A stretch of 5,494 nucleotides of DNA from sequence record MK629529.1; one strand, 5' to 3'. This DNA comes from Escherichia phage Lilleto. Both the position numbers and the translations under genes were made by a program. How positions within the stretch are numbered: the stretch's first letter is position 1; each line of letters starts with the position of its first letter. Positions 1-5,494 of this stretch are shown here, piece by piece. Under the pieces are notes generated by a model. That model was not told the origin of the DNA, did not search any database, and was given only the letters and a program-made list of their open reading frames with translations.

Positions 1-1635
1 ATGTCTGTAGAATTAGTAAAACCACTCGTCGAAGCCGCTGGTATGTCGACACTTACACAATCCCCAAACCTCCGTATCTGGAAACAGGTAAACACCCGCG
101 TAAAACTCTTAGAAGAAATCCTTGCTCACTGGACAAATGGAATCCGTCGCTGCCCTGAAACCCAAGACTTCTACATGAACCCAAATTCTCAACTGGCTAC
201 CACTATTGCCTATCGTGCCCATCAAAAAGGACACAACCCAAAACTTATTCAATACCCTGATACATTTACTCTTGACGATATTATTCGCCGTAAACCAATC
301 CCTCAAACTGCCCCTAACGAATTGCGCCTCTCTGATGAAATCGGTGAGGATTACCGCCTTACAGTTATCGCTATTGCTGACGAACTGCAAGAATGTTACG
401 ACGTGCTCGGACAACTTGATATTAATAACACTATAGACCACACCCCTAAAGGTAACGCCCACTGGAGTATGCTTTATGATAAACCTGTTAACACCCATTG
501 GTCACAGCTCGTATCTAAACGACCCCTTAAAGATATCCGCGCCGATTACAACTATGCAAAGGCGAAGGGTATTAAGGATGAATGCTCAAAAATGCTTGAG
601 GAATCCACCATGAAATCACGCCGGGGCTTTACCGTTCAACGATTGATGAATGCTATGCGCCAAGCCCACACTGACGGCTGGTATGTTGTATTCGACACTC
701 TTACTCTGGCCGATGATCGCATACAGGCTTTCTATGATAATCCCAATGCTCTTCGTGACTACTTCCGTGATATTGGTCGTATGGTGCTTGCTGCCGAGGG
801 TCGCTCTGCTAATGACTCACACGCCGACTGCTATCAGTATTTTTGTGTTCCAGAGTATGGCACACAGCACGGTCGTCTACATTTCCACGCAGTGCATCTT
901 ATGCGCACACTTCCTCTGGGTTCTCGTGACCCTAACTTCGGTAAGCTGGTACGCACTAATCGCCAAATAAATAGCTTGCAAAACACTTGGCCTTACGGCT
1001 ACTCTATGCCCATCGCAGTCCGGTACTCCCAAGACGCATTCTCGCGCGCTGGCTGGCTCTGGCCTGTCGACTCAAAGGGTGAACCCCTTAAAGCTACCTC
1101 GTATATGGCTGTCGGCTTCTACGTCGCTAAATACGTCAACAAAAAATCTGATATTGACATGGCCGCAAAAGGCCTAGGGAATAAAGAATGGAACGCATCA
1201 CTGAAAACCAAAATCTCTCTACTACCAACCAAACTATTCAGAATCCGAATGTCCCGCAACTTCGGGATGAAGATGTTATCAATGGCGCACCTGACCGCCG
1301 AAACATTAATCCAACTGACCCAACTGGGCTACGACTCGACCCCGTTCAACAACGTCTTGAAACAGAACGCCAAGAAAGAGCTGAAATCGAGGCTGGCAAA
1401 AGCATCTGTCGCGACCGTTTTGGCGGCGCAACCTGTAACGACCAATCTGCTAAAATTTATGCGCGATTTGACCCGAACAATCGGAGCGTCCAACCTGCAG
1501 AATTTTATCGCTTCAATGACTCAGAAATTAACACTCATGGATACTTCTGATGAAACCAAAAACTACCTTGCTGCTGCAGGAATTACTACTGCTTGCTTAC
1601 GAATTAAATCGAAGTGGACTGCTGGTGGAAAATGA
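1..1635 (+). CDS. A: Replication initiation protein A (rolling-circle HUH endonuclease)
   Basis: 544-aa ORF from the track. HUH-type motif HFHAVH and the paired catalytic tyrosines in [12 protein letters not shown] (Tyr codons at 1120-1122 and 1132-1134). C-terminal two thirds closely resemble phiX174 protein A from memory. Stop TGA 1633-1635 overlaps the gene C start. Start at nt 1 assumes the genome was rotated to the A start; if circular, GGAGG at 5481-5485 lies 9 nt upstream. Confidence 0.94.
412..441 (+). other. ori(+): Viral (+) strand origin of rolling-circle replication, 30-nt core nicked by protein A
   Basis: Exact occurrence of CAACTTGATATTAATAACACTATAGACCAC, the conserved 30-nt origin embedded in gene A of phiX174-type phages (from memory). 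Expected nick between G418 and A419. Confidence 0.85.
610..1635 (+). CDS. A*: A* protein (in-frame internal initiation within gene A)
   Basis: In-frame ATG at 610 (A residue 204) preceded by GAGGAA at 598-603. Product is 341 aa beginning MKSRRGF, the same length and N-terminus I recall for phiX174 A*. Expression is not provable from sequence. Confidence 0.6.
976..1005 (+). promoter_or_regulatory. Candidate promoter P_B inside gene A
   Basis: TTGCAA at 976-981, 18-nt spacer, TACTCT at 1000-1005, about 185 nt upstream of gene B. The -10 match is weak; the call rests mainly on position by analogy to phiX174. Confidence 0.25.
1188..1550 (+). CDS. B: Internal scaffolding protein B
   Basis: 120-aa ORF in a different frame, fully inside gene A. 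C-terminal part ([25 protein letters not shown]....[15 protein letters not shown]) matches my recollection of phiX174 B. ATG 1188 preceded by AGGGA at 1176-1180. Stop TGA 1548-1550 overlaps the K start. Confidence 0.9.
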
Positions 1636-1714
1636 AGAAATTCAATCTTGCACTAAAGAACTCGAGAGGGTCTTACTTCGCAACCTTTCGCCATCAACTC
1701 GCAATACTCTCTAA
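1550..1714 (+). CDS. K: Protein K (small membrane protein)
   Basis: Not in the ORF track (short); hand-translated from ATG 1550 to TAA 1712-1714, 54 aa: [54 protein letters not shown]. The core [20 protein letters not shown] of phiX174 K is conserved. It sits in the third frame across the A/C junction, the canonical K position. Confidence 0.8.
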
Positions 1715-1892
1715 GGCTGATGCCCTTGACGAGGAAAAATGGCTTAACATGCTGGGCGCTCTTCTTAAGGACTGGTTCCGCTACGAAGAACATTTCGTAC
1801 ATGGCAAACAATCTTTAGTTGACATATTAATCGAACGGGGGTTACTATCCCCCACACAAACAACCCGTAACAACAAAGGAAATACCAAATGA
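1632..1892 (+). CDS. C: Protein C (DNA maturation / switch to single-strand synthesis)
   Basis: 86 aa from ATG 1632 ([23 protein letters not shown]...), very similar to phiX174 C. ATG overlaps the A stop as ATGA (1632-1635); stop TGA 1890-1892 overlaps the D start as ATGA. The track's 1614 start is a GTG extension; the ATG is preferred. Confidence 0.9.
1819..1848 (+). promoter_or_regulatory. Candidate promoter P_D inside gene C
   Basis: TTGACA at 1819-1824, 18-nt spacer, TACTAT at 1843-1848, about 40 nt upstream of gene D. phiX174 has a similar TTGACA...TTACTAT arrangement upstream of D (from memory). Confidence 0.45.
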
Positions 1893-2344
1893 ACTCCAAC
1901 GAATCTGCTGTAGCCTTTCAAACTGCAATCGCTTCTATCAAAATGATTCAAGCCTCATCCGTCCTCGACCTTACCGAAGACGACTTCGAATTCTTAACTG
2001 GCGACCGTGTCTGGATTGCTACTGACCGCTCCCGCGCCCGCCGTGCTGTCGAGGCTTGTGTATATGGAACACTGGACTTTGTCGGGTATCCTCGCTTTCC
2101 TGCTCCTGTTGAGTTTATTTCTGCTGTTATCGCTTACTACGTTCATCCGGTCAACACCCAGACCGCTTGTCTCATCATGGAAGGAGCCGAATTTACTGAA
2201 AACATCGTCAATGGCGTTGAATCCCCAGTTAAGGCTTCCGAACTCTTCGCTTTCGTTCTCCGTGTCCGCGCTGGCTGTAAAGACGTCCTCGAAGGTGCCG
2301 AAGACAACATCCGCGCTAAACTCCGTGCACAAGGAATCATGTAA
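1889..2344 (+). CDS. D: External scaffolding protein D
   Basis: 151-aa ORF, near-identical over long stretches to phiX174 D (e.g. WIATDRSRARR.VEACVYGTLDFVGYPRFPAPVEFI). AAAGGA at 1874-1879 upstream of ATG 1889. Stop TAA 2342-2344 overlaps the J start as TAATG. Confidence 0.95.
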   Translation: MNSNESAVAFQTAIASIKMIQASSVLDLTEDDFEFLTGDRVWIATDRSRARRAVEACVYGTLDFVGYPRFPAPVEFISAVIAYYVHPVNTQTACLIMEGAEFTENIVNGVESPVKASELFAFVLRVRAGCKDVLEGAEDNIRAKLRAQGIM

Positions 2345-2351
2345 TGGCTAA
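2064..2351 (+). CDS. E: Lysis protein E (MraY inhibitor), overprinted in the +1 frame of gene D
   Basis: 95 aa from ATG 2064 (MEHWTLSGILAFLLLLSLFLLLSL...); N-terminal hydrophobic domain with the W4/LAFLLLLSL signature of phiX174 E. GAGG at 2051-2054 upstream. Stop TAA 2349-2351. The track ORF 2007..2351 is the same frame with an upstream alternative start. Confidence 0.85.
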   Translation: MEHWTLSGILAFLLLLSLFLLLSLTTFIRSTPRPLVSSWKEPNLLKTSSMALNPQLRLPNSSLSFSVSALAVKTSSKVPKTTSALNSVHKESCNG

Positions 2352-2430
2352 AGGCAAATCATATCGCCGCGGCTCTGCTGGCAACAAAAAAGGCTCCCGC
2401 CTCTGGTACGTTGGCGGCTCACAATTCTAA
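2344..2430 (+). CDS. J: Small basic DNA-binding/packaging protein J
   Basis: Hand-translated: MAKGKSYRRGSAGNKKGSRLWYVGGSQF, 28 aa, stop TAA 2428-2430. Basic N-terminus and the conserved ARLWYVGG.QF-type C-terminus of J proteins. AAGGAA at 2331-2336 upstream. Confidence 0.8.
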   Translation: MAKGKSYRRGSAGNKKGSRLWYVGGSQF

Positions 2431-2438
2431 CCTCCTAT

Positions 2439-2456
2439 GTGGGACCACGGTCCCAC
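2439..2456 (+). terminator. J-F intergenic hairpin (terminator or mRNA-stabilising stem-loop)
   Basis: Perfect inverted repeat GTGGGACC / GGTCCCAC around a short loop, followed by TCTATTT. It sits where phiX174-type phages carry the post-J terminator. Confidence 0.5.
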
Positions 2457-2474
2457 TCTATTTAAGGATATAAA

Positions 2475-3761
2475 ATGTCTAATGTTCAAACTTCTGCCTC
2501 TCGTGATGCAATTGATTTATCACATCTGGTCTTCAACACTGGCGCTATTGGTCGCCTTAAAGTCGCATCATGGACCCCTGTTATCGCTGGTGATTCTTTC
2601 CAGCTTGACGCTGTTGGTGCTTTACGCTTATCCCCTCTGCGTCGCGGCTTGGCTATTGACTCAACTGTTGATTACTTCACTTTCTACATTCCACACCGTC
2701 ATATCTATGGCGATGCATGGATTCAATTTATGAAAACTGGTGTCGCTGCCACTTCTCTTAACCCTGTAACTACTGGCGAATACGTTGATAGCGCCTCTTA
2801 TCTTGGTGTAATCCCTTCTGCTGATGGCAAGGTTCCCAAGTTCCTGCACCAAGGCTATCTCAATATTTACAATAACTACTTCAAAGCCCCTTGGATGGCT
2901 GACCGTACTGAGGCAAACCCCTCCAACTTAAACGACGACGACCGTCGTCACGGCTTCCGCTGCTGCCATCTAAAAAACATCTGGTCCGCACCTCTTCCTC
3001 CTCAAACGGAAATCACTCGCGCTATGACTACTGGCGCTACTTCTATTGATATTATGGGTCTGCAAGCTGCTTACGCCCAACTTCACACTGATCAAGAACG
3101 TGACTACTTTATGCAGCGTTACCGTGACGTAATCTCTTCGTTCGGTGGCAAAACTCACTATGACGCTGATAATCGTCCTCTTCTGCTTATGCGCTCTAAC
3201 TTCTGGGCTTCTGGCTATGATATCGACGGCACTGACCAAACTTCATTAGGTCAATTCTCTGGCCGCGTCCAGCAAACATTCCGTCACTCTGTTCCTCGCT
3301 TCTTCGTACCGGAACACGGCGTTATTATGACTCTTCAGCTCGTACGCTTCCCGCCTACCTGCACTGAGGAAACTCACTATCTCGTCGGCAAAGGCGCACT
3401 AAACTATACTGACCTTGCGGGTGATCCAACTCTTTACGGTAACTTACCGCCTCGCGAAATCGAAATGAAAACTCTCTTCCGTGGCGCTGCTGGCTCTACT
3501 GAAAAAATCAAAATTGCCGAAGGGCAATGGTATCGCTATCATCCTTCTTACGTTGATGGACAATATCACAACCTTCAAGGCTTCCCGTTCATCCAAAATG
3601 GTCCAACTGGCAACATGGAAAACCGTGTACTGATTGACCATAAAAAATACGACGAATGCTTCCAATCACTCCAATTAACTCACTGGAATGCCCAGGCTAA
3701 ATACAATGTCACTGTATATCGACATATCCCGACCACACGTGATAGCATCATGACTTCTTAA
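2475..3761 (+). CDS. F: Major capsid protein F
   Basis: 428-aa ORF with high similarity throughout to phiX174 F (e.g. GALRLSPLRRGLAIDSTVD, HTDQERDYFMQRYRDVISSFGGKT, TTRDSIMTS terminus). AAGGA at 2464-2468 upstream of ATG 2475. Stop TAA 3759-3761. Confidence 0.97.
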   Translation: MSNVQTSASRDAIDLSHLVFNTGAIGRLKVASWTPVIAGDSFQLDAVGALRLSPLRRGLAIDSTVDYFTFYIPHRHIYGDAWIQFMKTGVAATSLNPVTTGEYVDSASYLGVIPSADGKVPKFLHQGYLNIYNNYFKAPWMADRTEANPSNLNDDDRRHGFRCCHLKNIWSAPLPPQTEITRAMTTGATSIDIMGLQAAYAQLHTDQERDYFMQRYRDVISSFGGKTHYDADNRPLLLMRSNFWASGYDIDGTDQTSLGQFSGRVQQTFRHSVPRFFVPEHGVIMTLQLVRFPPTCTEETHYLVGKGALNYTDLAGDPTLYGNLPPREIEMKTLFRGAAGSTEKIKIAEGQWYRYHPSYVDGQYHNLQGFPFIQNGPTGNMENRVLIDHKKYDECFQSLQLTHWNAQAKYNVTVYRHIPTTRDSIMTS

Positions 3762-3772
3762 AGCCTATAACG

Positions 3773-3812
3773 TGACAGGGGGCGAAAAATTTTAATTTTT
3801 CGCCCCCTGTCA
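3773..3812 (+). other. F-G intergenic hairpin with 17-bp perfect stem; candidate complementary-strand origin element or terminator
   Basis: TGACAGGGGGCGAAAAA (3773-3789) pairs perfectly with TTTTTCGCCCCCTGTCA (3796-3812) around loop TTTTAA. The F-G intergenic region is where G4-type phages carry the primase-dependent complementary-strand origin and where phiX174 carries a terminator. Confidence 0.5.
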
Positions 3813-3862
3813 GGTTGAACAAGCGCAAGCGCGTTAGCTACCTAACTATAAGGACTACTCAA

Positions 3863-4387
3863 ATGTTCCAGAACTTTGTCACTAAACACAATTCTCCTCA
3901 ATTTACTACTACTATCACAAAGGCTGTCACTCCCGCCGCGTTGGCTCCTATTATTAATACGCCAACCGTTGCGCGTGACAATCTATTTGTGAATCTAACT
4001 ATTACCGCCCTGACTTCTCCGGGCGGTATCTCTGCTGTTGTCGCTATCGACAACTCCTCTCATACCGACAATCAGGTCGTTTCTGTTGCTGCCTCACTTT
4101 CTACTATCGGCAGCCTCGTACCTGTTCTTTGTCGGTTTGAATCTGCTACTGTCCCAACGGCTATCCCCGCCTCTGCGGTTACTTACTATCCGTTGGAATT
4201 TAAATCATCTGATACTACTCTGTCCGTTAAGGACTGCGTTACTGTCTCTACTCTTTCTCGCTCTGGCAATCCTGTTTATGTAGGTATTGCCCTTATTGCG
4301 AAATCATTTGTCGCCGGTACTGTGTACGGCTCCATCTCAATTAATCAGGTTGACCAAGAAATCACAACTCTGCAACCTCTCAAATAA
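3863..4387 (+). CDS. G: Major spike protein G
   Basis: 174 aa from ATG 3863 (MFQNFVTKHNS...), preceded by AAGGA at 3850-3854. Ends ...QVDQEITTLQPLK, like phiX174 G (...QVIKEIICLQPLK). The track ORF begins at a TTG (3815) inside the intergenic hairpin region; that extension is rejected. Confidence 0.93.
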   Translation: MFQNFVTKHNSPQFTTTITKAVTPAALAPIINTPTVARDNLFVNLTITALTSPGGISAVVAIDNSSHTDNQVVSVAASLSTIGSLVPVLCRFESATVPTAIPASAVTYYPLEFKSSDTTLSVKDCVTVSTLSRSGNPVYVGIALIAKSFVAGTVYGSISINQVDQEITTLQPLK

Positions 4388-4396
4388 GGAATCTCT

Positions 4397-5434
4397 ATGT
4401 TTGGTGCAATCGCTGGCGGCATCGCCTCTACTCTTGCTGGCGGTCTAATGTCCAAACTGATGGGCGGCAATAAACAAGCCGCCCCTTTAACTCCCGGACA
4501 AGGCCTCTTTGCTACTCCTGAAACTACTATCTCTGCTGACAATGCAGGTATTCAATCTGTTATGCAGGGACCTAACCCGCCTAGCCCTGATAAGGCGGCT
4601 CCTACATTTACCGAATCTGCCGTCTCCTCACTTAAGGATGCTGGCAAAGGACTCCTCGATGGTACTCTACAAGCTGGCGGCTCTGCTGTTCAACAAGCTC
4701 TTCTTAACAAAATTGGCCTCGGTGGCAAATCTGCTGCTGATAAAGGCAAGGATACTAAAGATTACCTTGCTTCTGCGTTCCCAGAGCTCAACCCGTGGGA
4801 ACGCGCTGGCGCTGGTGCTTCCTCTGCTGGTATGGTTGACGCTGGTTTTGAAAACCAAAAACAACTAACCAAGATGCAACTTGACAACCAAGTCAAAATC
4901 GCTAAGATGCAAAACGAAACTCAAAAGGATATCGCTGGCATCCAGTCTGTCACATCACGCATGAATACTAAGGATTCTGTCTATGCTCAAAATGAAATGC
5001 TCTCTTACAACCAAAAAGAATCTATGTCACGCGTTGGCGCTATTCTCGAAAACACAAGCCTCACCAAACAACAACAAGTTTCTGAAATTATGCGCCAAAT
5101 GCTTACTCAGGCTCAAACCTCAGGACAGCACTTTACTAACGCTCAAATCCAAGAACTTACTCGAAAAGTCGGTGCTGATATTGATGCTGTTCGTGCTAAC
5201 ACTGAACGCACCCATGTAGAAACTGACCGCTCTAAACAGGAAGTCCAAAACTCACGTTATGCTTCATCACAGGTCGGTAAAACCGCCAAGGACGTATCAA
5301 ATGTCATTAGTGACGCATCTTCTGGTATTGTTGATTATTTTCGCGGCGTTGATAAAGCTGTGGCTGACACTTGGAACAATTATTGGAAAGATGGTAAAGC
5401 CGACGGAGTAGGCTCAAATATGTCTCGCAAATAG
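4397..5434 (+). CDS. H: Minor spike / DNA pilot protein H
   Basis: 345-aa ORF: [20 protein letters not shown]-terminus, glycine-rich region, and the KDGKADG.GSN.SRK C-terminus of phiX174 H. AAGGA at 4386-4390 upstream of ATG 4397. Stop TAG 5432-5434. Confidence 0.95.
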
Positions 5435-5435
5435 C

Positions 5436-5465
5436 TTGACAATCACATCATAAATCCTATCTAAT
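5436..5465 (+). promoter_or_regulatory. Candidate promoter P_A in the H-A intergenic region
   Basis: Consensus -35 TTGACA at 5436-5441 directly after the H stop; 18-nt spacer to TCTAAT at 5460-5465 (5 of 6 matches to TATAAT). Would drive gene A transcription across the circular junction. Confidence 0.4.
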
Positions 5466-5494
5466 AGCCTCCATTAACACGGAGGCTCTTTCGA
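5466..5494 (+). terminator. H-A intergenic hairpin (candidate post-H terminator; overlaps the gene A Shine-Dalgarno)
   Basis: AGCCTCC (5466-5472) pairs with GGAGGCT (5481-5487) around the 8-nt loop ATTAACAC, followed by CTTTCGA. The right arm contains GGAGG, 9 nt before the gene A ATG if the sequence is circular. Confidence 0.45.

Follow-up and report, generated by a model that had tools for sequence, protein, structure and literature searches.

The 5,494-nt sequence of Escherichia phage Lilleto as a very probably complete, circularly closed phiX174-like genome from an already published group of coliphages

The window, that is, the whole 5,494-nt stretch of Escherichia phage Lilleto DNA analysed here (MK629529.1), carries eleven genes on one strand, arranged canonically as A(A*)-B-K-C-D(E)-J-F-G-H, and their reading frames nest and overlap. 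The full phiX174-type set occurs once, with every gene present exactly once and all eleven reading frames intact, and no terminal duplication is found in the window. Hairpins were folded as single-stranded DNA and compared with 200 shuffles. The features are as follows.

1..1635, plus strand: gene A, rolling-circle replication initiator, 544 aa (PF05840, 204.6 bits)
412..441, plus strand: ori(+), the 30-mer CAACTTGATATTAATAACACTATAGACCAC, a single exact match
610..1635, plus strand: A*, in-frame internal start of A, 341 aa, beginning MKSRRGF, with GAGGAA upstream; start placed by homology
976..1005, plus strand: predicted promoter, pB homologue, TTGCAA, 18-nt spacer, TACTCT (column-by-column alignment with phiX174)
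1188..1550, plus strand: gene B, internal scaffolding protein, 120 aa, lying within A in a different frame (PF02304, 150 bits)
1550..1714, plus strand: gene K, 54 aa, overlapping the end of A and the start of C (PF12283, 61 bits)
1632..1892, plus strand: gene C, 86 aa, with an ATGA overlap at each end (PF12025, 136.5 bits)
1819..1848, plus strand: predicted promoter, pD homologue, TTGACA, 18-nt spacer, TACTAT (consensus scan and alignment)
1889..2344, plus strand: gene D, external scaffolding protein, 151 aa (PF02925, 268.8 bits)
2064..2351, plus strand: gene E, single-gene lysis protein, 95 aa, in the +1 frame of D (weak Pfam match, helix homology)
2344..2430, plus strand: gene J, DNA-binding core protein, 28 aa (PF04726, 36.2 bits)
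2439..2456, plus strand: J-F hairpin, GTGGGACC-AC-GGTCCCAC, then TCTATTT; terminator-like in the scan (z -2.4)
2475..3761, plus strand: gene F, major capsid protein, 428 aa (PF02305, 505 bits)
3769..3816, plus strand: F-G hairpin, 23-nt arms around the centre AAAAATTTTAATTTTT, 96% complementary (-28.7 kcal/mol, z -7.3)
3863..4387, plus strand: gene G, major spike protein, 174 aa (PF02306, 106.4 bits)
4397..5434, plus strand: gene H, minor spike / DNA pilot protein, 345 aa (PF04687, 473 bits)
5436..5465, plus strand: predicted promoter, pA homologue, TTGACA (5436-5441), 18-nt spacer, TCTAAT, facing gene A across the junction (alignment)
5466..5487, plus strand: H-A hairpin, AGCCTCC-N8-GGAGGCT, then CTTTCGA (z -3.7)

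All ten proteins match Microviridae Pfam families, nine of them above the curated cut-offs and E below. The D and G families by which phiX174-like microviruses are recognised (PF02925 and PF02306) are both present; they are not known from other microviruses such as the gokushoviruses. Neighbouring genes overlap at TGATG (B stop, K start), at ATGA (A stop with C start, and again C stop with D start) and at TAATG (D stop, J start). In length and identity, A, B, K, C, D, E, J and H are nearest to their G4 and ID2 counterparts. The A protein shares 83% of its amino acids with A of G4 and ID2 and 64% with that of phiX174, and contains the HUH motif HFHAVH (aa 294-299, nt 880-897) and the twin-tyrosine motif YVAKYV (aa 374-379, nt 1120-1137). 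By homology, A* would start at 610, which makes it as long as the A* of the G4 and ID2 annotations (698-1723). Synonymous divergence in A is strongly suppressed over 1321-1605, as evidence for gene B, and the coordinates of C are those annotated in Lilledu and Lilleput. D is 80-88% identical to its homologues in phiX174, ID2 and G4, and F is 74% identical to that of phiX174 and 67-68% to those of G4 and ID2. The most divergent gene is G, with 37-41% amino acid identity to every reference (39% to phiX174), a divergence of the spike that Olsen et al. 2020 also noted in these phages. The start of H is the one annotated in Lilleput, MG1 and lillemer. Within H, an island of 60-80 nt shows suppressed synonymous change across G4-like phages.

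The 30-mer CAACTTGATATTAATAACACTATAGACCAC is identical to phiX174 4299-4328 and occurs once in the window, inside gene A, where synonymous divergence dips over 412-441. The conserved 30-nt nick site is thus found within the gene of its own HUH/twin-tyrosine initiator. Since position 4306, the eighth base of the 30-mer, is where viral-strand synthesis originates in the phiX174 record, the corresponding nick would fall between G418 and A419.

Three promoters are predicted at positions conserved with phiX174. The pB homologue aligns with the phiX174 region holding the annotated start site 4899, and transcription from it would probably begin near 1012. The pD homologue matches the consensus at 10 of 12 positions, lies 41 nt upstream of the D start and is conserved in G4, ID2 and phiX174, where pD transcription starts near 358. 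The site corresponding to pA was not called by the generic promoter scan because its -10 hexamer is weak (TCTAAT after an 18-nt spacer). Its TTGACA is conserved in ID2, G4, phiX174 and alpha3, and G4 shares the TCTAAT; together with the GCCTCC-N8-GGAGGC hairpin, the TTGACA aligns with the phiX174 H-A spacer, in which a transcription start is annotated at 3962.

The intergenic hairpins are of mixed affinity. The J-F hairpin is the G4-type version by alignment and sits at the place of the TJ terminator, while the F-G hairpin is homologous to that of phiX174 and ID2; its spacer aligns with phiX174 as well and is 96.5% identical to ID2 over 86 aligned nt. By analogy with phiX174, whose primosome-assembly site presumably lies within this hairpin, the F-G hairpin is a candidate PriA primosome-assembly site for complementary-strand synthesis and/or a candidate TF terminator. 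A G4-type ori(-) was not found: neither blastn nor nhmmer gave a match anywhere in the window to the three-hairpin DnaG region of G4 (3884-4019), and nothing in the window resembles the ori(-) annotated in G4 at 3970-3998 or its alpha3 counterpart. Since ID2, which is classified as a Gequatrovirus, also lacks it, this feature does not define the genus. The H-A hairpin sits at the place of the TH terminator and is conserved as GCCTCC...GGAGGC in ID2, G4 and phiX174. Its 3' arm carries the Shine-Dalgarno sequence of gene A, GGAGG (5481-5485), 9 nt before the A ATG. Exactly 60 nt (5435-5494) follow the H stop, and they hold the promoter-like and Shine-Dalgarno-like signals, TTGACA and GGAGG, that the first-pass annotation placed there. 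Between this hairpin and gene A, members of the family have spacers of 5 to 8 nt. Here the spacer consists of 8 nt (TCTTTCGA, 5487-5494) that differ from the TTTAAC of close relatives, which could be real variation, in view of that spread, or a small error in closing the assembly.

The window matches six published complete genomes colinearly and over its full length at 93-97.7% identity (Lilledu 97.7%, lillemer 97.6%, Lilleput 96.2%, MG1 95.5%, SECphi17 93%). The first-pass annotation had taken it for a whole microvirus genome rotated to the start of gene A, and this is borne out by the end-to-end alignment, as the records of Lilledu, Lilleput, Lilleen and MG1 also begin at the A ATG; the gene set and order, overlapping layout, ori(+) 30-mer and intergenic hairpins of phiX174/G4 type are likewise each present where that annotation put them. 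Positions 5345-5494 followed by 1-150 form one unbroken alignment in lillemer, SECphi17, PJNS002 and the metagenome contig OBLN01002562.1. Because the join is unbroken in four relatives that are all rotated differently, the window closes on itself, as shown by this comparison with relatives. The length, also placed correctly at the outset between phiX174 (5386 nt) and G4 (5577 nt), lies within 2-11 nt of close relatives (5483-5492 nt), the Lilleen record aside, which is about 150 nt shorter. With closure by comparison, it falls in the range of circular genomes of phiX174-like microviruses (about 5.3-6.1 kb), which carry single-stranded DNA inside a T=1 capsid. The window is therefore very probably the complete closed genome of a lytic circular phiX174-like microvirus, linearised from the A ATG.

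The mixture of hairpin types might also suggest that the sequence is a chimera, or a mis-assembled consensus built from several microviruses that occur together. The J-F hairpin is of G4 type while that of the nearest relative, Lilledu, is of phiX/ID2 type, two extra nucleotides perfect the F-G hairpin in this window alone, and over about 691-945 the synonymous sites of A are unusually similar to those of G4. Yet identity to Lilledu and lillemer is even, at 97-100% in every coding gene; the only lower values are 68% for the J-F spacer, against Lilledu, and 92-93% for the H-A spacer. The G4-type J-F hairpin is also found in lillemer, Lilleput and Lilleen, so the combination exists in independent isolates; no frame is broken, and natural recombination in the family makes mosaicism expected. 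Such a consensus is thus very unlikely. Slightly less probable still is that the window is a microvirus-derived segment of a larger replicon, integrated or cloned, and cut so as to resemble a whole genome. No flanks are visible, and close relatives have another sequence in place of the 8 nt that precede the A ATG, but the unbroken join, the length, and the single copy of each gene with no terminal duplication all speak against it. No embedded copy was found in 5,426 complete E. coli genomes or in plasmid records, where the sole matches were 5386-bp phiX174 records, and neither an integrase nor a non-phage ORF occurs among the ORFs and Pfam matches of the window; this possibility is already largely refuted. 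Finally, there is next to no chance that the window is phiX174 itself, for instance as spike-in contamination from sequencing: the gene order and 30-nt origin are the same, but whole-genome identity to NC_001422 is 68% rather than near-complete, G is only 39% identical, and A (544 against 513 aa), H (345 against 328) and J (28 against 38) differ in length, just as the first-pass annotation had pointed out in judging it probably not phiX174.

For a complete microvirus of this kind, the life cycle would begin with conversion of the incoming plus-strand circle to duplex by host enzymes. Homology suggests that priming most likely involves a PriA primosome at the F-G hairpin, which is of phiX174 type, rather than DnaG acting directly as in G4. 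Transcription would run one way from pA, pB and pD, with attenuation at the hairpins that follow J, F and H, both activities being predicted from homology. Protein A would nick the 30-nt origin between G418 and A419 and start rolling-circle synthesis, procapsids of F, G and H would be scaffolded by B and D, and the single strand would be packaged by C and J. Lysis would be brought about by E, a step less certain than the others because E lacks the Pro21 reported to be critical.

E shows its defining features here: it is a short protein read in the +1 frame relative to D, and it has the homologous membrane helix at its N-terminus. Pfam gives a weak C-terminal match only (18.8 bits against a cut-off of 25), and the probability of such a frame staying open by chance is about 0.03. 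Over E codons 1-30, change at synonymous sites of D is suppressed. The first 20 residues hardly differ from those of G4 E, and E aligns with PDB chains 8G02_B and 8G01_B (E values 2e-9 and 3e-9). Within this helix the window and all eight other members of the clade carry Leu21 (CTG, 2124-2126 in the window), where all other E proteins examined have Pro21, the residue expected of an E that inhibits MraY. Mutagenesis reviews describe Pro21 as absolutely crucial to MraY inhibition by phiX174 E, and in ID52 E, P21A abolished lysis. In the clade the helix has changed from LLPSLLIMFIP to LLLLSLTTFIR (P21L, S22L, L23S, I25T, M26T and P29R), each change being a synonymous substitution in gene D. This remodelled helix is near-constant among nine genomes in which over half of the remaining synonymous sites of D vary, and the membrane segment of E is under purifying selection across the nine-member clade. 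Perhaps, and we lean slightly towards this reading, the E of the clade is a natural variant that remains functional without a transmembrane Pro21. If so, it binds MraY with a different helix geometry, or has a different target. His3 and Phe19, both naturally present in this E, are the pair of substitutions that enable phiX174 to lyse slyD-defective hosts.

Comparison with Microviridae genomes, as suggested in the first-pass annotation, placed the clade as the Lilledu/SECphi17 group, with ID2 and G4 nearest; the view that this is a known family and not a new system was right, and the observation is correct but ordinary, a small ssDNA coliphage whose group is already published, with the missing Pro21 of E as its single unusual feature. 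Lilledu (MK791318), lillemer (MN850599), Lilleput, Lilleen and MG1, at 95.5-97.7% identity, share the gene order, the divergent G spike, Leu21 of E and the phiX/ID2-type F-G hairpin. Differences from the window amount to about 2.3% substitutions, the J-F hairpin in the case of Lilledu, and the window's own two extra nucleotides (3782-3783) and differing 8-nt spacer before A. Their GenBank records annotate 5-7 of the 11 genes and leave out B, K, E, J and A*. These relatives were isolated as plaque-forming phages on MG1655, as was, according to NCBI, the ssDNA phage SECphi17 (LT960607), which has the same architecture and Leu21 but differs in its 7% divergence, a phiX/ID2-type J-F hairpin and an unannotated record whose 55-nt terminal repeat was left by assembly (true length 5483 nt). 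By the rule of Olsen et al. 2020, which asks for at least 95% identity, the window forms one species with Lilledu and lillemer, while SECphi17 at 93% falls just outside.

The nearest classified relatives are ID2 (Gequatrovirus talmos, NC_007817) and Gequatrovirus G4 (NC_001420), at 73-75% identity over aligned columns, a figure that falls to 71-73% when gaps are counted. They resemble the window in A and in the layout of A* and the B/K/C overlaps, ID2 further in the F-G hairpin spacer and G4 in the J-F hairpin. They differ in G (only about 40% identical), in Pro21 of E, in the 136-nt F-G spacer with its DnaG-primed ori(-) in G4, and in host, which is E. coli C for G4 and ID2 and K-12 for the Lilledu group. 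The ICTV genus threshold, here to be reached against G4, ID2 or ID52, lies at about 70% genome-wide nucleotide similarity, and NCBI taxonomy lists the Lilledu group as unclassified Bullavirinae, outside the genus Gequatrovirus. Olsen et al. 2020 reported 59-68% by BLAST, yet called the group gequatroviruses. With phiX174 (Sinsheimervirus, NC_001422) the window shares the eleven genes, their order and overlaps, the 30-nt ori(+), the positions of the homologous pA, pB and pD and an F-G hairpin with the AAAAATTTTAATTTTT centre, whereas it is set apart by overall identity, the lengths of A, H and J, and Leu21 in place of Pro21. Placement in the former subfamily Bullavirinae, now family Eubullaviridae, within the published Lilledu/lillemer/Lilleput/MG1/SECphi17 group infecting E. 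coli K-12, can be made with high confidence.

A megablast search with the window matched 569 phage records, the best of them end to end (Lilledu 97.7%, lillemer 97.6%, Lilleput 96.3%, Lilleen 96.1%, MG1 95.5% and SECphi17 93.3% identity), and a MAFFT alignment of the genomes, all rotated to the start of gene A, gave the same identities. Several of these best-matching records likewise open with the ATG of gene A; closure was assessed on relatives whose records start elsewhere, using as query the end of the window joined to its beginning (5345-5494 plus 1-150). An uninterrupted 300-nt alignment across this junction was obtained in lillemer (2026-2323), SECphi17 (5078-5375) and Salmonella phage PJNS002 (950-1248), and the junction was also internal in the metagenome contig OBLN01002562.1. 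No terminal repeat was found in the window and no copy of it in 5,426 complete E. coli genomes, and the sole matches in the plasmid collection were 5386-bp phiX174 records. The unbroken junction in relatives, the lack of a terminal repeat and the lack of a chromosomal or plasmid copy argue that the window is one complete circle opened at gene A, so that the first-pass annotation, which had called it a whole genome, is upheld by a junction continuous in four differently rotated relatives. A caveat on closure concerns the 8 nt that separate the H-A hairpin from the ATG of A (5487-5494): the window has TCTTTCGA there, and all close relatives have TTTAAC. Family members differ in the length of this spacer (5-8 nt), and the sequence of the window may be genuine variation or may stem from a small mistake in closing the circle.

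Some of the matched records call for comment of their own. In SECphi17 (LT960607) and OBLN01002562.1 the first 55 nt recur as a direct repeat at the end of the record, an artefact of assembling circular genomes; their true lengths without it are 5483 nt and 5484 nt, respectively. Six 5386-bp "plasmids" (from Vibrio, Cellulomonas, Edwardsiella and E. coli) have the length of phiX174 and match the window at ~77%, about the level expected of phiX174. Judging from this length and match level, they are almost certainly contaminants from the Illumina spike-in that were submitted as plasmids.

The plus strand of the window holds ten long reading frames and one internal in-frame start, listed here with the three intergenic hairpins.

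Features of the window (z, fold of the hairpin as single-stranded DNA against 200 shuffles; Pfam, match to a Microviridae family above the curated cut-off)
1-1635, plus strand: gene A, reading frame, Pfam
610-1635, plus strand: A*, internal in-frame start of A
1188-1550, plus strand: gene B, reading frame, Pfam
1550-1714, plus strand: gene K, reading frame, Pfam
1632-1892, plus strand: gene C, reading frame, Pfam
1889-2344, plus strand: gene D, reading frame, Pfam
2064-2351, plus strand: gene E, reading frame; C-terminal E model of Pfam below threshold (18.8 bits, cut-off 25)
2344-2430, plus strand: gene J, reading frame, Pfam
2439-2456: hairpin after J, terminator-like, z -2.4
2475-3761, plus strand: gene F, reading frame, Pfam
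3769-3816: hairpin after F, 23-nt arms, -28.7 kcal/mol, z -7.3
3863-4387, plus strand: gene G, reading frame, Pfam
4397-5434, plus strand: gene H, reading frame, Pfam
5466-5487: hairpin after H, z -3.7

Gene junctions are classical (TGATG at B/K, ATGA at A/C and C/D, TAATG at D/J), and protein A carries the HUH motif HFHAVH at aa 294-299 and the twin-tyrosine motif YVAKYV at aa 374-379. Reading frames, Pfam matches and junctions reproduce the gene set, order and overlapping layout that had been read from the sequence alone, as well as the protein lengths set against those of phiX174 (A 544 aa vs 513, H 345 vs 328, J 28 vs 38). The practical value of the analysis is a corrected annotation: all eleven genes and the regulatory sites are placed, while the GenBank records of the clade have just 5-7 genes annotated and lack A*, B, K, E and J in every case. 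Further discrepancies in these records include Lilledu H, annotated from a later start codon, and, in lillemer, whose record is split inside F, a hypothetical protein assigned to an off-frame ORF of that gene (window 2482-2733). Off-frame ORFs at 650-970, 2437-2733, 4038-4283 and 4509-4868 were rejected as genes; their length is not in excess of that in synonymous resampling, and they are attributed to T-rich third codon positions. An Rfam scan of both strands of the window at E<=1 gave no match.

The origin 30-mer CAACTTGATATTAATAACACTATAGACCAC occurs once in the window, at 412-441, which bears out the ori(+) 30-mer of the first-pass annotation, and is also present in phiX174 (4299-4328), G4, ID2 and every close relative. 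In the phiX174 record, viral-strand synthesis has its origin at 4306, which puts the expected nick of the window between G418 and A419. The intergenic hairpins claimed earlier were likewise recovered, in the spacers after J, F and H. Exactly 60 nt follow the H stop, and the promoter-like and Shine-Dalgarno-like signals attributed to them are present: TTGACA (5436-5441), TCTAAT 18 nt on, the hairpin, and GGAGG (5481-5485) 9 nt upstream of the A ATG at position 1. A generic promoter scan of the window did not call the TTGACA/TCTAAT site. The layout TTGACA ... GCCTCC-N8-GGAGGC ... ATG is common to ID2, G4 and phiX174, and the phiX174 record places a transcription start, 3962, inside it. Homologues of pB (976-1005) and pD (1819-1848) are conserved column by column with the corresponding phiX174 regions, for which a pB start is annotated at 4899 and the pD start presumably lies near 358. 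Promoter and terminator activity of these sites is predicted from homology. The J-F spacer (2431-2474) exists in two interchangeable hairpin versions among genomes that are 93-98% identical: a G4-type (GTGGGACCACGGTCCCAC) in the window, lillemer, Lilleput and Lilleen, and a phiX/ID2-type (GGGGCTTCGGCCCC) in Lilledu and SECphi17, with a hybrid in MG1. This distribution points to recombination or cassette-like replacement.

The G4 record places primer RNA and complementary-strand origin at 3970-3998, within a 136-nt F-G spacer, and nothing similar to this G4-type ori(-) was found across the whole window. Its own F-G spacer (101 nt) is 96.5% identical to that of ID2 over 86 aligned nt. The phiX174 spacer, where we take the primosome assembly site of that phage to be located, is also alignable to it, including the hairpin centre AAAAATTTTAATTTTT and then a GGTTGA-CAAGCG-AAGCGCG motif. 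Synthesis of the phiX174 complementary strand begins at a hairpin, the "primosome assembly site", recognised by PriA with PriB, PriC and DnaT (PMC5778457). Assuming a life cycle as in phiX174 and G4, the complementary strand of the window phage would be expected to be primed PriA-dependently and not G4-style, since a G4-type ori(-) is lacking and the F-G spacer resembles those of phiX174 and ID2. Two features of this region vary among relatives. In the left arm of the hairpin, the window has two extra bases (CG, 3782-3783) that make its 23-nt arms almost perfectly paired; they are absent from all six close relatives and from ID2, and the hairpins of all seven accordingly have a 2-nt bulge. From the Lilleen record (MK629526), ~157 nt corresponding to window 3746-3903 are missing: F is cut short at its end, G lacks its start, the F-G spacer is gone entirely, hairpin included, and F and G are annotated as overlapping. 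The candidate ori(-) may really have been deleted, or the record may be mis-assembled at the hairpin.

Lysis protein E, encoded in the +1 frame of D, reads MEHWTLSGILAFLLLLSLFLLLSLTTFIRS... in the window and departs from the segment ...LLPSLLI(M/T)FIP... found in phiX174, G4, ID2, alpha3, ID8 and three metagenomic E proteins, as well as in both solved E chains (8G02, phiX174; 8G01, ID21). Position 21 is Leu (CTG, 2124-2126) in place of Pro (CCG), a change that is synonymous in D (GCC to GCT), and the neighbouring changes S22L, L23S, I25T, M26T and P29R (E codons 21-29, 2124-2150) are likewise synonymous in D. These six helix changes are common to the nine clade members, P29R being missing in PJNS002 alone. 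The Pro21 kink has been described as "absolutely crucial" in a review of the mutagenesis by Tanaka & Clemons (PMC5039524), and P21A abolishes lysis by ID52 E (PMC11126076). Leu21 was seen in the window and eight other clade members (seven phage records and one metagenome contig) and nowhere else: IMG/VR gave no match to a Leu21-type 26-mer, a degenerate Leu21 pattern matched a single contig in a metagenome scan, and a search of 5.8 billion proteins with the window E did not return the clade E, only E of G4-like and phiX-like phages, with Pro21 in all six sequences inspected. A tblastn search with E recovered few records, since the leucine-rich helix is masked by the low-complexity filter.

Gene E nonetheless does not look dead. 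Its frame is open in all nine genomes (chance probability ~0.03 for a single genome), and over E codons 1-30 only 5/30 third positions of D are polymorphic among them, against 67/121 elsewhere (Fisher P = 1.7e-4), comprising 33/58 before E and 34/63 over the E C-terminal part; the same test on the window and PJNS002 alone gives P = 0.0011. In phiX174 adapting to slyD-defective hosts, R3H and L19F arise in E and permit lysis (PMC3324380). The window E has His3 (2070-2072) and Phe19 (2118-2120), as does G4 E, which suggests that lysis may be independent of SlyD. A natural E without Pro21, in phages that plaque on the standard laboratory host, would allow the kink model of MraY inhibition to be tested directly.

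Gene H contains an island of suppressed synonymous variation, present in all G4-like phages and not in phiX174 or alpha3. At about 4967-5101 (core 5015-5085), the window diverges from PJNS002, ID2 and G4 by only 0.04-0.16 at third positions, compared with gene averages of 0.27-0.38. Across 12 G4-like genomes, the third position varies in 65% of H codons but in only 15% over 5024-5083, and 75-80% of third positions vary in other H stretches where the protein is equally conserved. An 80-nt probe of the island is kept at >=90% identity in 381/381 G4-like records, the weakest among the matches listed being 92.5%. The island could reflect an overlapping coding constraint, a cis-acting site without structure, or a recombination tract swept through the whole G4-like group. 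A +1 ORF of 78 codons (4983-5219) overlaps the island and is open in 12/12 G4-like genomes, with identical start and stop in 11 of them and, in ID2, a start 3 codons earlier (81 aa) and the shared stop. Its openness alone does not support a gene (P ~0.08 by chance), as stop-free +1 runs in simulated H sequences average ~88 codons. A structured element can be dismissed, as neither strand of the island folds better than its shuffled versions (z +0.4 to +0.6). In a virus family that is among the best studied, the island points to an unrecognised constraint, which may be an overlapping frame or a cis-acting site. The side observations on E and H, both recorded as leads, could matter more than the main finding.

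That main finding concerns identity. The first-pass annotation had proposed a nucleotide search and whole-genome alignment to phiX174, G4 and alpha3; Lilledu came out as best match, and ID2 (74.7% over aligned columns) and G4 (73.3%) are nearer than phiX174 (68.4%) and alpha3 (60.8%). Its view that this is probably not phiX174 agrees with that 68.4% and with the differing A, H and J lengths, and its view of a known family, not a new system, with the 97.7% identity to published Lilledu. Its observation is confirmed and its interpretation supported: the object is a known kind of phage in an already published species-level group, one more near-identical genome among K-12-infecting microviruses, and matters little as a finding. 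Lilleen, Lilleput, Lilleto, Lilledu and lillemer come from Danish wastewater and were isolated on MG1655 by Olsen et al. 2020 (PMC7552041), who reported 92.6-94.5% similarity to SECphi17 but only 59-68% to recognised Gequatrovirus species, and still named them gequatroviruses with gpG similarity almost nil. NCBI taxonomy currently keeps the group under "unclassified Bullavirinae", alongside the family Eubullaviridae, which holds Gequatrovirus, Sinsheimervirus and Alphatrevirus.

Individual genes differ in their affinities. Gene G (3863-4387) is the most divergent by far, with 37-41% protein identity to G of phiX174, G4, ID2 and alpha3 and 58% nucleotide identity to PJNS002, a divergence that fits a different host, K-12 instead of E. 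coli C. Within gene A, third-position divergence at 691-945 is 0.00-0.12 from G4 and 0.2-0.4 from ID2 and PJNS002, a pattern suggestive of a recombination tract that the window has in common with the G4 lineage. In agreement with the whole-genome ranking, protein A as a whole is 83% identical to its G4 and ID2 counterparts and 64% to that of phiX174, and D is 83-88%, H 71-73% and K 73-77% identical to those of G4 and ID2. F, in contrast, is slightly nearer to phiX174 F (74%) than to the F of G4 and ID2 (67-68%).
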